64,000 nt of DNA from Escherichia coli (GTDB lineage: Bacteria > Pseudomonadota > Gammaproteobacteria > Enterobacterales > Enterobacteriaceae): the NCBI RefSeq assembly GCF_003334355.1, contig NZ_QOWP01000010.1; one strand, given 5' to 3'. The notes under the pieces were generated by a model. The model was not told the origin of the DNA. It saw nothing but the letters and a program-made list of their open reading frames with translations, and did not search any database. Positions 17,491 to 38,454 of this stretch are shown in pieces. Each line of letters starts with the position of its first letter. Position 1 is the first letter of the stretch. The position numbers and the translations under genes are program-made.

Positions 17491-17578
17491 TGGCGGAAGC
17501 GCAGAGATTCGAACTCTGGAACCCTTTCGGGTCGCCGGTTTTCAAGACCGGTGCCTTCAACCGCTCGGCCACACTTCC
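17491..17578 (-). tRNA. serT: tRNA-Ser (anticodon UGA)
   Basis: Reverse complement reads GGAAGTGTGGCCGAGCGGTTGAAGGCACCGGTCTTGAAAACCGGC...CTTCCGCCA: 88 nt with long variable arm, encoded CCA and UGA anticodon. Confidence 0.93.
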
Positions 17579-36267: not shown

Positions 36268-36552
36268 ACAAATTCCTTACTGAAAATACTGCGCTGCACT
36301 ATACGGGGTTAATAAAATAAAGCCAGCGATATTTAAGACCGCCGGACGGCTAAAATAAAATTTGCTTAATCTCAATTATCATGCGTTAATAGCTGCGTCG
36401 GTTTGAAAGACAGACAGCATACAAAGTAGTTTACTAAAGCAGTTCTCATTATCAGGCATTATCCCCTTCTTTTGAGTCTCTCTCCTGAACACTAAGTAGT
36501 TTCTGTATTAAAGCCCTGTTTGCCGAAAGGCCCAAAATGAAGGAAGTAAAAT

Positions 36553-36765
36553 ATGTCTAATAAAATGACTGGTTTAGTAAAATGGTTTAACGCAGATAAA
36601 GGTTTTGGCTTTATCACTCCTGATGATGGCAGCAAAGACGTTTTCGTCCATTTCACCGCCATCCAGAGCAATGAATTCCGCACGCTGAACGAAAATCAGA
36701 AAGTTGAATTTTCTATTGAGCAGGGGCAACGTGGCCCCGCGGCAGCGAACGTTGTTACGCTCTAA
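36553..36765 (+). CDS. cspG: Cold-shock protein CspG (70 aa)
   Basis: Full-length cold-shock domain [41 protein letters not shown] with RNP motifs. Confidence 0.95.
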
Positions 36766-36964
36766 GGTTGCCATTATTACTCAACATCTCCATTTCCGCT
36801 GTCCATGTTGTCATGGTTCACAGTACCGCACATCGGCATTCGATGTGACGGAGCGAAACCCTTTGGGCGCTAAGTGTATTTTTTGTAAATCGACGATGAT
36901 CACCTTTGATAACGTCGCGCTGCAAATACGCACTGACCATGCGCCGCTGGATTTCACAAAATAA
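36704..36964 (+). CDS. ymcF: Small Cys-rich ORF overlapping the cspG 3' end (ymcF-like); true start uncertain (no in-frame ATG; TTG at 36704/36752, GTG at 36731)
   Basis: Open frame 36704..36964 encoding ...[32 protein letters not shown]... (paired Cys motifs); position matches the small gene annotated between cspG and ymcE in E. coli. Confidence 0.45.
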
Positions 36965-37169
36965 TATCAGGCTCCCTCGTGGAGCCTTTTTTATATCTGC
37001 CTTATTTTTCTTCAACGCTGTATGTATAGTAAGCGATAACCTGTTGATTATTGAATCTTTCGGGGAGATGGCTTATAACATTTCTTACCTGACCAGGGTA
37101 CCGGGAACCAACACCTTACTGGCGTGTTGCTGTCTTTTAAGACCAGAAGAGGTTAACAGTGAATATTGA
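36939..37169 (+). CDS. ymcE: Small membrane protein YmcE/Sfa (76 aa)
   Basis: ATG at 36939 ([33 protein letters not shown]...); track ORF begins at an upstream TTG. Confidence 0.8.
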   Translation: MRRWISQNNIRLPRGAFFISALFFFNAVCIVSDNLLIIESFGEMAYNISYLTRVPGTNTLLACCCLLRPEEVNSEY

Positions 37170-37332
37170 AGAGTTAAAAAAACAAGCCGAAACGGAAATC
37201 GCCGACTTTATCGCGCAAAAAATCGCCGAGCTGAACAAGAATACAGGGAAAGAAGTCTCTGAAATTCGCTTCACCGCACGAGAAAAAATGACCGGGCTTG
37301 AAAGTTATGATGTCAAAATCAAAATAATGTGA
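37159..37332 (+). CDS. gnsA: GnsA (57 aa)
   Basis: GTG start at 37159 overlapping the ymcE 3' end; translation MNIEELKKQAETEIADFIAQKIAELNKNTGKEVSEIRFTAREKMTGLESYDVKIKIM; not in the ORF track (under 60 codons). Confidence 0.8.
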   Translation: MNIEELKKQAETEIADFIAQKIAELNKNTGKEVSEIRFTAREKMTGLESYDVKIKIM

Positions 37333-37338
37333 TTTTGT

Positions 37339-37366
37339 GAACATCACCCCGTGCGAGGTGATGTTC
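37339..37366. terminator. Hairpin between convergent gnsA and yccM (probable terminator)
   Basis: Inverted repeat gaacatcacc/ggtgatgttc; weak U-tract. Confidence 0.45.
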
Positions 37367-37380
37367 CGCTTGTTGCTAAT

Positions 37381-38454
37381 TTAGTGACCAATCATTGGCG
37401 CTTGTGGAATTAAGCGTCGGTACAATTCCTCCGGCACCGGGCTTTGCCATACTCCCGCATACATTGCGTAACCAATCACCGCGAACATAATCCCCAGAAC
37501 CAGTAGCGTCATTAACCAGCCAGACAACGCAAAAGCTTTTTTATTTGCCGCAGGTTTTTGCAGTGAAAAGGTCAATGTTGAAGCTACCGGACATGACTCT
37601 ACGCAAGTCATACAGCCGGTACATTCCACTGTTCGTACCTGAATTAATTTATCTACCGGGATCCGTGATGGGCAATTTTTTGCGCATTTGCCACAGCCGA
37701 TACAACTTTCGGCATTGCGACGAATCTTAAACGGCGATAATAGCGAAACCACGCCCATCAGCGCGCCATATGGGCAAAGATAACGACACCAGGCATGGCG
37801 AATAAACAGGCTGGCAATCAGCAAAACGGTCACGCTGATTAATGTCGCGGTCCCCATATAACGAAAGAAATCGAGCATTTTAACGTCCATCACCACGCTG
37901 TAGGGCGACAACATAAAATAGTGAATCGCCTGAGCGGGCATCAATAACGCGATATAGAGAAAAAAACTCAACAGCAAATACTTTACACCGCGCAGAGGAA
38001 TATCCAGCCAGCGGGGAAGGACACATTGCCGACCAAACAGTTTGTTACCGAGATCGCCGATTAATTCAGAAAGCGTACCAACCGGGCATAACCATGAGCA
38101 AAAGGCCTTTTTGAGTAATAGACTGATGACGATAAAAGCGACCAATAACAGCATCGCGGCGGCGTGGACGGACGGTAACTGACCTGTTGTAAGGCTATAT
38201 TTCAGATTCATCAGACCGGCAATCGGTAGCCAGCCTTCGATACCTCCCGGTCTGGCGACAAATGTCGTGCTACTTGCCGTTTCGTAATAGCGCACCCAAT
38301 ACCAGAACGTGATGGCAATATAAATATTCATTGCCAACAGTAATAATTGCGTCGCTTTACGCCAGGTCGTGGCATTGCGCCAGTCATTCCACGGTAATTT
38401 GCCGCCCGTCGTGCCTGGCCGCCGCTGCCAGCGGGTTCTTTTTTTCTCTGCCAT
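37381..38454 (-). CDS. yccM: Membrane-bound 4Fe-4S ferredoxin-type protein YccM (357 aa)
   Basis: Full-length ORF with transmembrane helices and CxxCxxC motifs (CIGCGKCAKNCP, CTGCMTCVESCP). Confidence 0.9.
   Translation of the reverse strand: MAEKKRTRWQRRPGTTGGKLPWNDWRNATTWRKATQLLLLAMNIYIAITFWYWVRYYETASSTTFVARPGGIEGWLPIAGLMNLKYSLTTGQLPSVHAAAMLLLVAFIVISLLLKKAFCSWLCPVGTLSELIGDLGNKLFGRQCVLPRWLDIPLRGVKYLLLSFFLYIALLMPAQAIHYFMLSPYSVVMDVKMLDFFRYMGTATLISVTVLLIASLFIRHAWCRYLCPYGALMGVVSLLSPFKIRRNAESCIGCGKCAKNCPSRIPVDKLIQVRTVECTGCMTCVESCPVASTLTFSLQKPAANKKAFALSGWLMTLLVLGIMFAVIGYAMYAGVWQSPVPEELYRRLIPQAPMIGH

Follow-up and report, generated by a model that had tools for sequence, protein, structure and literature searches.

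The DNA directly downstream of the cold-shock gene cspG in Escherichia coli holds three small open reading frames (ORFs) that overlap one another, and the question it raises is whether these form a tightly packed module of the toxin-antitoxin or regulatory kind. The original prediction, made from a stretch of 64,000 nucleotides (referred to here as the window), had described them as three overlapping genes with non-ATG starts: a ymcF-like gene, ymcE and gnsA. The names were correct. The window corresponds to E. coli K-12 (NC_000913.3, approximately 1,014,909-1,078,908), with which the cspG-ymcF-ymcE-gnsA segment shares 100% identity, RefSeq calls are present for all four genes, and the locus is an already annotated, known K-12 cassette to which no new genes are added here. 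Based on a comparative set of approximately 160 related loci, the locus is best read, with a probability of about 0.7, as a prophage-type cold-adaptation cassette consisting of two expression units, and a toxin-antitoxin module is disfavoured. The annotated features are as follows:

36397..36819, plus strand: cspG mRNA with a cspA-type thermoregulator, long 5' UTR plus coding sequence (Rfam RF01766)
36553..36765, plus strand: cspG coding sequence, 70 aa (RefSeq annotation)
36776..36964, plus strand: ymcF (b4723), 62 aa, ATT start, Cys4 zinc-ribbon-like small protein (annotation)
36939..37169, plus strand: annotated ymcE (b0991), 76 aa, ATG start (RefSeq)
37159..37332, plus strand: gnsA (b4517), 57 aa, GTG start (annotation)

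The mechanical ORFs on which the prediction was built are present as described, at 36704-36964 (TTG start, 86 aa, CPCC...CIFC), 36906-37169 (TTG, 87 aa) and 37159-37332 (GTG, 57 aa). The overlaps are also real, amounting to 26 nt between annotated ymcF and ymcE (36939-36964) and 11 nt between annotated ymcE and gnsA (37159-37169). Non-ATG starts had been assigned to all three genes, which holds for ymcF (ATT) and gnsA (GTG) and fails for ymcE, annotated from an ATG at 36939. As proposed, gnsA begins at the GTG at 37159 inside the 3' end of ymcE; it was indeed absent from the ORF track, probably because its 57 aa fall under the default cutoff of 60 aa.

In cspG, ymcF and gnsA, pN/pS did not exceed 0.14 (0-0.10, 0-0.14 and 0-0.11, respectively) and changes fell mainly at third codon positions. 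The cspG mRNA scored 159.3 bits against RF01766 (gathering score 78). YmcF, named 'cold shock small protein YmcF' by NCBI, matched Pfam PF23641 over its full length (E=1.7e-49, residues 1-62 on model positions 1-62), with homologs in 137 clusters across Enterobacteriaceae. GnsA matched Pfam PF08178 (E=8.4e-36), and its GTG lines up with the ATG start codons of 83 homologs. Two PDB entries, 4XO1 and 4XO2, are titled 'Protein GnsA' and contain GnsA alone, which we take to be a small helical-hairpin protein.

The overlaps do not amount to evidence for a packed operon, because a predicted intrinsic terminator sits between ymcF and gnsA, within the ymcE ORF. The features at the 3' ends of the two units are:

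36969..36993, plus strand: predicted intrinsic terminator of the cspG-ymcF unit, 7-bp stem AGGCTCC/GGAGCCT, 5-nt loop, T6 run
36922..37002, plus strand: weak match to STnc220 (Rfam RF02077, 34 bits), comprising the ymcF 3' end and the terminator
37339..37366, no strand assigned: inverted repeat (13 nt, 92% complementary) lying between gnsA and yccM, which converge

The segment 36969-36993 (folding energy -12 kcal/mol, z=-3.0) is a predicted rho-independent terminator with a conserved position, since 63 of 98 distinct contexts have a hairpin with a T-run, differing in stem sequence, at a distance of approximately 1-22 nt (mostly 4-10 nt) from the ymcF stop. The STnc220 match in K-12 lies under the gathering score of 60, against 102 bits at the equivalent site in two Salmonella loci (L016 and L023); this Salmonella 'sRNA' candidate there covers the terminator and roughly the final 40 nt of ymcF, a region to which the weakly matching K-12 segment is homologous. 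In strain TW10690, an IS4 element is inserted at the terminator, with gnsA and its upstream region intact. The inverted repeat at 37339-37366 is probably a 3'-end hairpin, without a T-run, and terminator prediction made no call there.

Two further blocks lie between the terminator and gnsA:

37044..37079, plus strand: promoter-like block TTGATTATTGAAT-N17-TATAAC (cross-locus alignment)
37080..37158, plus strand: gnsA leader with an AGAGG Shine-Dalgarno sequence (conservation in Escherichia)

The promoter-like block, with hexamers at 37051-37056 (-35) and 37074-37079 (-10), was found upstream of nearly all gns genes compared (gnsA, gnsB, Citrobacter and viral loci); it is absent from locus L008. 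It was visible only by cross-locus conservation; a consensus promoter scan upstream of gnsA made no call because the -10 hexamer of the putative promoter, TATAAC, ends in C and not in the canonical T. The leader that follows is nearly invariant in Escherichia, save for a variable patch at 37094-37105, and differs from that of E. albertii at 1 of 79 positions, against a pS of 0.34 in gnsA. No conserved RNA structure emerged: RNAalifold placed 0 pairs in 19 diverse leaders, the K-12 leader folded no better than shuffled sequences (z=+1.1), and it matched no Rfam family. The anti-Shine-Dalgarno duplex at the gnsA start was calculated at -6.5 kcal/mol. Altogether, gnsA would be expressed from its own promoter-like block, possibly also by read-through, and would be translated from the GUG behind the strong AGAGG sequence.

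The same arrangement occurs in prophages. The Qin cassette cspI-ynfQ-ynfR-ynfN-gnsB (K-12 NC_000913.3, 1,637,609-1,638,667) and its lambdoid relatives share gene order and strand with the cspG locus, and the likeness extends to a csp gene with a cspA-type leader, a 62-aa YmcF-family ynfQ whose ATT start follows the csp stop by 10 nt, a hairpin terminator immediately behind ynfQ, and a 57-aa gns behind the same promoter-like block and AGAGG sequence. The prophage version differs in carrying ynfN (51 aa) between terminator and gns and the 21-aa ynfR across the hairpin, whereas on the Escherichia chromosome ynfN is missing and the 76-aa ymcE ORF takes its place; gnsA starts with GTG and gnsB with ATG. 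The order csp-ymcF-(ynfR)-ynfN-gns was found in 73 of 80 viral loci, and Citrobacter also carries ynfN between ymcF and gnsA. YmcE occurred in a single contig among the 80 viral loci, a contig with 98% identity to K-12, and kinship between YmcE and YnfN was rejected, as BLASTP returned no alignment. The cspG locus is the chromosomal paralog of a lambdoid prophage cargo cassette, csp-ynfQ-(ynfR)-ynfN-gns, from which ynfN was lost in Escherichia.

The status of ymcE is central to the reading of the locus. The ORF matches Pfam PF15939 and NCBIfam NF007379, and its homologs are restricted to Escherichia/Shigella, where they are often fused with neighbours or variable in length. Its ATG is replaced by AGG in four of six other Escherichia lineages (L004, L006, L007 and L040), being absent both from an E. 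coli-labelled strain (L004) and from E. albertii; 1-nt deletions were present in L005 and L040, and deletions of 2 and 1 nt in L003. No Shine-Dalgarno sequence was found at its start. pN/pS ranged from 0.36 to 1.4 or was undefined, and differences were about equally frequent at each codon position. Instead of codon position, divergence tracks the regulatory blocks, as differences from E. albertii numbered 0 of 25 in the terminator, 12 of 50 in the spacer, 0 of 36 in the promoter-like block and, as given above, one in the leader. Judging from these patterns, ymcE probably encodes no conserved protein. It would be a chance open frame over the terminator, a spacer that evolves neutrally, and the promoter and leader of gnsA, and GnsA would have no conserved partner in it.

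Alternatively, ymcE could be a young, Escherichia-specific de novo gene, perhaps expressed mainly on cold read-through transcripts, whose small hydrophobic peptide has a lineage-specific effect unrelated to the neutralisation of GnsA. We consider this unlikely, although several observations speak for it. Virtually all of the 5,415 E. coli genomes carrying ymcE have the ORF annotated and undisrupted, an observation that is uninformative because 92% of the genomes are at least 99% identical in sequence. YnfR, encoded by the analogous 21-aa ORF across the cspI-ynfQ terminator, has been detected as an SPA-tagged, cold-induced protein; therefore, translation across such terminators can occur, which counts against a non-coding ymcE. 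Additionally, an ASKA ymcE clone was reported to give a small rise in butanol tolerance, and some datasets show strong regulation of ymcE RNA, but such RNA signals could equally originate in the gnsA leader or at the 3' end of ymcF. Against a de novo gene stand the loss of the ATG within and outside E. coli, the missing Shine-Dalgarno sequence and the block-wise conservation, together with polymorphisms within E. coli, which were 7 nonsynonymous to 1 synonymous in ymcE versus 3 to 16 in its neighbours (p=0.0009).

A chance open frame at ymcE also bears on the suggestion, made from the tight packing of the small genes, that these belong to a toxin-antitoxin or regulatory cassette, in which ymcE and gnsA would be a type II pair with YmcE as upstream antitoxin, GnsA as toxin and ymcF as a third overlapping member. 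That the pair has been proposed as such is accurate: it is listed as predicted in literature and databases, reviews and modelling papers include ymcE-gnsA among toxin-antitoxin pairs, the Pfam families are named YmcE_antitoxin and GnsAB_toxin, and PGAP labels gnsA 'addiction module toxin'. As in relBE and mqsRA, two small ORFs overlap (here by 11 nt) with the putative antitoxin upstream, which fits the architecture of such operons. Furthermore, a preprint reported more persisters on overexpression of gnsA or gnsB, with lowered ATP in the case of gnsA, and the higher persister counts resemble toxin behaviour.

Unlike relBE and mqsRA, the ymcE-gnsA pair is not co-conserved. YmcE adjoins gnsA in Escherichia only, being absent from 79 of 80 viral gns loci and from all Citrobacter loci, and outside Escherichia the unrelated ynfN precedes gns. 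The selection expected of an antitoxin protein was not found in ymcE, which also lacks a DNA-binding domain and, as described above, purifying selection, a stable start codon and frame, and a Shine-Dalgarno sequence; the terminator and the promoter-like block both lie inside it. GnsA, the supposed toxin, is reported in the literature as a growth-rescuing multicopy suppressor in several backgrounds when carried alone on plasmids, and is also reported to increase, at low temperature, the content of both unsaturated fatty acids and acidic phospholipids. It proved possible to delete gnsA, and the accessible literature terms the pair 'predicted'. No structure of YmcE or of a YmcE complex was found among solved structures. 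The toxin-antitoxin reading is not supported, because the 'antitoxin' ymcE looks like a terminator followed by the promoter and leader of gnsA, and we regard it as improbable.

A further explanation would give the terminator-spanning ORFs (ymcE and Qin ynfR) a function in the act of translation, with ribosomes blocking the hairpin and thereby allowing cold read-through into gns, the peptide itself being irrelevant. Both paralogous cassettes do have an ORF that runs from at or before the ymcF/ynfQ stop across the hairpin, the cold induction of YnfR-SPA is compatible with such a role, and so is the absence of protein-level selection on ymcE. Nevertheless, a spanning ORF was found in 41 of the 63 terminator contexts, with an ATG start in 23 of 63, and the common Citrobacter/prophage terminator type (AGGCTCCTTATGGAGCCT) has none, so that a conserved device of this kind was rejected as not general. 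In addition, the ymcE start has no Shine-Dalgarno sequence in front of it and has disappeared from several Escherichia lineages, and gns owns a conserved promoter-like block. This explanation is therefore very unlikely, and the reading of ymcE as a chance open frame between two expression units is retained.

The first of these units is cspG-ymcF. An in-frame ATG had been noted as missing from the Cys-rich frame, and up to the codon for residue 41 of the annotated protein there is none; its start, however, was wrongly placed inside cspG: the annotated ATT at 36776 comes 10 nt after the cspG stop (TAA, 36763-36765), and the ATG codons of homologs agree with it, lying exactly at the codon aligned to 36776 in 33 of 80 orthologous loci and within three codons of it in a few more. 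The stop is embedded in cTAAGG, which doubles as the ymcF Shine-Dalgarno sequence (anti-Shine-Dalgarno duplex, -3.9 kcal/mol). That the protein is instead the full 86-aa product of the longest mechanical ORF, from the TTG at 36704 within cspG, is almost certainly wrong: the frame is open for 29 codons upstream in many Escherichia and Citrobacter loci, but the upstream in-frame stop lies 3 to 81 codons away depending on species, the TTG has no Shine-Dalgarno sequence, orthologs without an adjoining csp have an ATG start at the codon matching 36776, and the Pfam model spans residues 1-62 end to end.

The identity of the ymcF start codon follows the presence of csp. Among 38 genome loci with an intact csp ending 9-10 nt upstream, 37 start with ATT or ATC and one with ATG, the latter being a csp-ymcF fusion in C. 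sedlakii, whereas loci without an adjacent csp have ATG in 37 cases and ATT in 3. The association (Fisher p=1.4e-17) ignores phylogeny and is inflated by common ancestry, with only ~4-5 distinct ATG contexts. Viral loci with an adjacent csp start with ATT or ATC in 70 of 70 cases, and in Klebsiella oxytoca and Raoultella a decayed csp 3' end is retained and the ymcF start is now ATG. In 99 loci the csp stop and the ymcF start are 10 nt apart, in 7 others 9 nt, and the csp stop is embedded in TAAGG or TGAGG, so the Shine-Dalgarno sequence overlaps the upstream stop.

From the switch from ATT/ATC to ATG upon csp loss, we infer that ymcF is translationally coupled to cspG. As with other AUU-start genes such as infC, ymcF keeps a near-cognate AUU or AUC across genera though it is one base from AUG. 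The AUU of infC is an autoregulatory IF3 sensor at an independent initiation site; the ymcF AUU, in contrast, follows the stop codon of a highly translated gene at a distance of 10 nt and becomes AUG when that gene is lost, which therefore points to termination-reinitiation coupling and not to IF3 sensing. Ribosomes ending cspG at the UAA, within a weak Shine-Dalgarno sequence (cUAAGG), would re-initiate at the AUU and produce the 62-aa Cys4 zinc-ribbon-like YmcF in low amounts, dependent on CspG translation from an mRNA bearing the cspA-type thermoregulated leader. After ymcF, transcription would halt at the hairpin and T-run.

The earlier guess of a zinc ribbon for the Cys-rich ORF was reasonable, as conservation extends to both CxxC pairs (C9, C12 and C37 invariant and C34 at least 90% conserved in 42 homologs) and the best fold matches, all non-significant, are to zinc ribbons. 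An AF2 model of moderate quality (mean pLDDT 69), searched against the PDB with Foldseek, gave top matches mostly of zinc-finger or zinc-ribbon type as judged from their names (the MqsA N-terminus, TFIIE, eukaryotic and archaeal large-subunit ribosomal proteins, and NrdR), all at E>1, and a profile search against PDB sequences returned spurious CxxC matches only. YmcF may bind zinc. A rubredoxin topology has been described for its paralog YnfQ (PMC13348028). Kinship with YnfU, a zinc-binding small protein near cspB, was rejected (hhalign probability 1.3%, CxxC knuckle only), as was the NCBIfam assignment ECs_2282, whose match lies far under its cutoff.

Altogether, the locus would comprise cspG-ymcF as one unit and gnsA as the other, possibly both with cold-specific roles, and not three co-translated overlapping genes. 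A more far-reaching version, which we put forward tentatively from the comparison of loci, holds that 'ymcE' is no gene and the GnsA/YmcE 'toxin-antitoxin family' of Pfam and PGAP an artefact of annotation. What is selected would be the terminator, the gns promoter and the near-invariant, unstructured 79-nt leader, which may be an unrecognised cold-response cis-element, and the AUU/AUC start may be a selected device that ties the zinc-ribbon YmcF/YnfQ strictly to csp termination.

These observations have consequences for how the family is treated. The toxin-antitoxin label on gnsA/ymcE has spread through Pfam, PGAP, toxin-antitoxin surveys, kinetic models and fold-switching predictions; the ORF on which it is founded lacks the behaviour of a protein-coding gene, and the use of ymcE-gnsA as a 'well-characterised' toxin-antitoxin system needs re-examination. 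In turn, ymcF offers a natural experiment, in which over 100 csp-coupled copies retain ATT or ATC and ATG takes over when coupling is lost, and would provide a testable case of near-cognate starts enforcing translational coupling in a cold-shock operon.

The window matches NC_000913.3 at ~1,014,909-1,078,908, and its region 36400-37400 shows 100% identity to E. coli K-12 MG1655; among 5,426 complete genomes of E. coli, 5,417 have this region. The locus is already known and annotated, and RefSeq places the following genes here:

cspH, minus strand
36553-36765, cspG
36776-36964, ymcF (b4723)
36939-37169, ymcE (b0991)
37159-37332, gnsA (b4517)
yccM, minus strand

The original prediction had named the three small genes downstream of cspG correctly, and the overlaps it described are present, with 26 nt common to ymcF and ymcE and 11 nt to ymcE and gnsA. 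The gnsA GTG at 37159 within the 3' end of ymcE was also reproduced; at 57 aa this ORF falls below the tool's default threshold of 60 aa, which probably accounts for gnsA being missing from the ORF track. The mechanical ORF list contains an 86-aa TTG ORF from 36704 carrying CPCC...CIFC, an 87-aa TTG ORF from 36906 and a 57-aa GTG ORF from 37159. The annotated ymcF start is an ATT at 36776, past the cspG stop, and that of ymcE an ATG at 36939, so that a Cys-rich frame beginning inside cspG and a non-ATG start for ymcE had to be given up. IS elements break up the cspG-gnsA locus in some E. coli strains: IS1 lies inside the equivalent 1-kb region in strains 1008S13 and EC4, and in TW10690 (L166) IS4 lies at the terminator, with gnsA intact and retaining 190 nt of upstream sequence. 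No cspG or ymcF is annotated 5' of gnsA in TW10690, and a second match occurs elsewhere in that record.

The start position of ymcF is fixed by homology. K-12 reads ATT ATT at 36773 and 36776; as all non-K-12 Escherichia sequences examined (four more strains of E. coli as well as five other Escherichia lineages) read GTT ATT, 36776 is the conserved start, and the extra ATT is a K-12-lineage polymorphism just 5' of the real one. The anti-Shine-Dalgarno (anti-SD) duplex at the K-12 ymcF start is -3.9 kcal/mol, and none was found at TTG 36704. Across 80 ymcF loci, sampled as one genome per species, the codon aligned to 36776 was ATT in 40, ATC in 3 and ATG in 33, with the remaining four having an ATG one to three codons from the aligned position. 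These loci, together with 80 gns loci on viral contigs, were tallied by the closest start that could be used and by whether a csp gene lay next to it.

Start codon of ymcF according to csp adjacency
Genome loci with an intact csp whose end lies 9-10 nt upstream of ymcF: ATT/ATC 37, ATG 1
Genome loci, csp not adjacent to ymcF: ATT/ATC 3, ATG 37
Viral loci, intact csp adjoining ymcF: ATT/ATC 70, ATG 0

For the genome loci the association gave a Fisher p=1.4e-17, a value not adjusted for phylogeny, and by our count the ATG contexts that differ from one another number only ~4-5. In every case the csp stop lies inside TAAGG or TGAGG, the source of the K-12 anti-SD duplex given above. Some ymcF copies, from Klebsiella oxytoca, Raoultella and part of the Citrobacter loci, have ~45 nt upstream the decayed 3' end of a csp gene, interrupted by a TAG in frame (loci L028, L029, L032, L036, L037, L039, L046, L048 and L080); these copies have switched to ATG and have a Shine-Dalgarno sequence of their own. 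Altogether, this pattern argues that a near-cognate ymcF start accompanies translational coupling to csp, and we infer re-initiation by ribosomes terminating at csp as the mechanism. The sole csp-adjacent ATG belongs to Citrobacter sedlakii NBRC 105722, where csp and ymcF are fused as a single 130-aa ORF (L012 1797-2189) with the ATG at the ymcF codon-1 position; this may be either a natural Csp-YmcF fusion, which would hint that the two are physically linked, or an artefact of the assembly or of a frameshift. The Pseudescherichia vulneris group (L045, L073 and L079) has the only ATT-start ymcF copies lacking an adjacent csp or other upstream ORF, and these may be poorly expressed or decaying.

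YmcF (62 aa) matched the Pfam YmcF-like family end to end (E=1.7e-49), and 137 clusters of homologs, most with a length of 62 aa, span the Enterobacteriaceae. In an alignment of 42 homologs C9, P10, C12, H13, G14 and C37 never vary, while C11 and C34 are conserved in at least 90%, resulting in two CxxC knuckles. The AlphaFold2 model, of moderate quality (mean pLDDT 69), shows the knuckles flanked by short beta elements, with a helix after them. A Foldseek search against the PDB returned nothing significant (all E>1); judged by name, the top matches were mostly zinc-finger or zinc-ribbon-type proteins, including the MqsA N-terminus, TFIIE, eukaryotic and archaeal large-subunit ribosomal proteins and NrdR. 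A 2026 review presents a model of the paralog YnfQ that has the topology of a rubredoxin and contains a metal site (PMC13348028). Given the knuckles, the model, the non-significant matches and the YnfQ precedent, the proposed zinc-ribbon-like character of the Cys-rich ORF is reasonable but not proven, and YmcF may bind metal.

The entire cspG mRNA matched the Rfam cspA thermoregulator at 159 bits. Four nt past the ymcF stop, 36969-36993 contains a GC-rich hairpin of 7 bp and, directly behind it, a T6 run (-12 kcal/mol, z=-3.0), and this predicted terminator falls within the annotated ymcE ORF. Of 98 distinct contexts, 63 have a hairpin and T-run ~1-22 nt (mostly 4-10) from the ymcF stop, with stems that vary between contexts (AGGCTCC, AGGCCCC, AGCTCC, AAGGCCAG and AAACAGGTCAG). 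The Rfam 'sRNA' STnc220 in Salmonella (102 bits; L016 2147-2226 and L023 2147-2225) consists of the last ~40 nt of ymcF plus the hairpin and is probably no independent gene but a fragment from the 3' end of the csp-ymcF mRNA; the K-12 segment at 36922-37002 matched at 34 bits, below threshold. Further Rfam matches above the gathering score in the window were:

47502-47580, minus strand, naRNA4 (CssrE)
53457-53499, minus strand, ES036 (CssrF)
17494-17578, minus strand, tRNA

A paralogous cassette in the Qin prophage of NC_000913.3 is annotated as cspI, ynfQ (62 aa), ynfR (21 aa), ynfN (51 aa) and gnsB. Like ymcF, ynfQ starts at an ATT, 10 nt past a cspI TGA that lies inside TGAGG. The annotated ynfR gene (L083, the Qin locus, 2689-2754, minus strand) is the cspI-ynfQ terminator hairpin and T-run read as an ORF (MKAPSGAFLLG...), and YnfR-SPA is cold-induced (PMC6001520). 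The order csp-ymcF-(ynfR)-ynfN-gns recurs in 73 of the 80 viral gns loci, where ymcE occurs only in a contig 98% identical to K-12; Citrobacter chromosomal loci have ynfN between ymcF and gnsA, and Trabulsiella, Raoultella and Yokenella have ynfN without gns. K-12 and Qin DNA align over csp-ymcF (74%) and gns (73%), with the region between unalignable, and a comparison of YmcE with YnfN found them unrelated. Where the prophage cassette carries ynfN before gns, the Escherichia chromosomal locus carries ymcE. Based on gene order and the DNA alignment, the latter appears to have been fixed as a copy of a lambdoid-prophage cargo cassette and to have lost ynfN. Near cspB, Qin also encodes YnfU (56 aa; L083 5306-5476), another small 'putative zinc-binding protein' of the CxxC...CxxC type; as a possible relative of YmcF it was rejected, with no detectable homology (hhalign probability 1.3%).

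Several independent tests indicate that ymcE fails to behave as a protein-coding gene. Matches to YmcE form just 28 clusters among 5.8 billion proteins, many odd in length or fused to YmcF or GnsA domains, and all from Escherichia/Shigella bar one partial sequence labelled Salmonella that is 100% identical to K-12 YmcE. Among the 80 species loci detection was limited to Escherichia; two Citrobacter loci match the C-terminal 40 residues only, directly 5' of gnsA. In an alignment of Escherichia loci, the ATG is AGG in L004, L006, L007 (E. albertii) and L040, a 1-nt deletion occurs in L005 (E. whittamii) and L040, L003 has -2 and -1 indels, and L004 has a 6-nt deletion. Relative to K-12, pN/pS is 0-0.10 for cspG, 0-0.14 for ymcF and 0-0.11 for gnsA, with mostly third-position differences; for ymcE it is 0.36-1.37 or undefined (0 synonymous, 6-10 nonsynonymous), with differences even across codon positions. 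Four E. coli strains show 7 nonsynonymous versus 1 synonymous site in ymcE, compared to 3 versus 16 in cspG, ymcF and gnsA pooled (p=0.0009), and their RefSeq accessions are identical for CspG and GnsA but number three for YmcE, none of them that of K-12. No Shine-Dalgarno sequence was found at ATG 36939 (+0.7 kcal/mol) or TTG 36906 (+0.3 kcal/mol), compared to -6.0 for cspG and -6.5 for gnsA. Against E. albertii the terminator has 0/25 differences and the spacer at 36994-37043 has 12/50, a 24% divergence near the synonymous divergence of neighbouring genes (0.24-0.42). The ORF is intact in 5,415 E. coli genomes, which carries little weight because most are ≥99% identical. That ymcE encodes a young translated peptide is unlikely, though it keeps some credibility, in part through the example of YnfR, an ORF across a terminator that can be translated.

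The reading of the overlapping module as a toxin-antitoxin (TA) cassette also needs correction. A modelling paper counts the ymcE-gnsA pair as one of the type II TA systems of E. coli and cites the GnsA structure paper for the label 'inhibitor of phospholipid synthesis' (PMC8484670), a TA survey places the GnsAB toxin partner 'strictly upstream' (PMC10790755), SLING grades the pair 'predicted' (PMC6265476), and a fold-switching study takes YmcE as antitoxin while acknowledging few homologs and noisy couplings (PMC12219334). The functional reports found deal with gnsA alone, and with a ymcE that does not resemble a coding gene a true TA pair seems highly improbable. Translation across the terminator as a read-through device is less credible still, since the spanning ORF is not general across terminator contexts.

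GnsA matched Pfam GnsAB (E=8e-36) and the solved GnsA structures 4XO1 and 4XO2. Its GTG start is kept in Escherichia and three Citrobacter loci and aligns with ATG in 83 other homologs. Nearly all gns genes compared (chromosomal gnsA, Citrobacter, Qin gnsB and viral contigs, with L008 lacking it) are preceded by a conserved block, TTGATTATTGAA-N17-TATAAN or TATCTT, and an AGAGG Shine-Dalgarno sequence lies between this block and gnsA. Cross-locus conservation delimits in K-12:

37051-37056, putative -35 hexamer TTGAAT
37074-37079, putative -10 hexamer TATAAC

A consensus promoter scanner did not call the block, which we read as a putative gns promoter; 37044-37079 has 0/36 differences from E. 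albertii. The leader at 37080-37158 is almost invariant across Escherichia species (1/79 versus E. albertii), unlike flanking sequence and gnsA synonymous sites, which diverge by 24-34%. A search for conserved secondary structure in the leader found none, and no RNA structure or Rfam family accounts for its near-invariance.

Taken as a whole, the cspG-ymcF transcript would carry a cspA-type thermoregulated leader and be translated efficiently into CspG, with terminating ribosomes re-initiating at AUU to make YmcF in a small, fixed fraction, and transcription would stop at 36993. The gnsA gene would be transcribed from its own promoter, possibly aided by cold read-through, and translated from GUG, and its product may alter membrane lipid composition at low temperature. 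In published work, ynfQ, ynfN and cspI are induced by cold and regulated together (PMC11228462), and ymcF and ynfQ change in step with cspG and cspI (PMC11728337). With gnsA or gnsB on a plasmid, unsaturated fatty acids increase and growth of relA fadR mutants in the cold is rescued (bioRxiv 2024.03.27.586906); in multicopy, gnsA suppresses lapC190, secG and fabA6 (PMC10607373), and its overexpression yields more persisters, its deletion being viable (bioRxiv 310961). The gene positions, the homology of the starts, the conserved terminator, the patterns of selection and the paralogy are observed, and the coupling, the promoter activity, the metal binding and a cold-specific function of the locus are proposed. 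Two modest, testable by-products of this analysis are that ymcE is doubtful as a gene and that ymcF switches between ATT and ATG.
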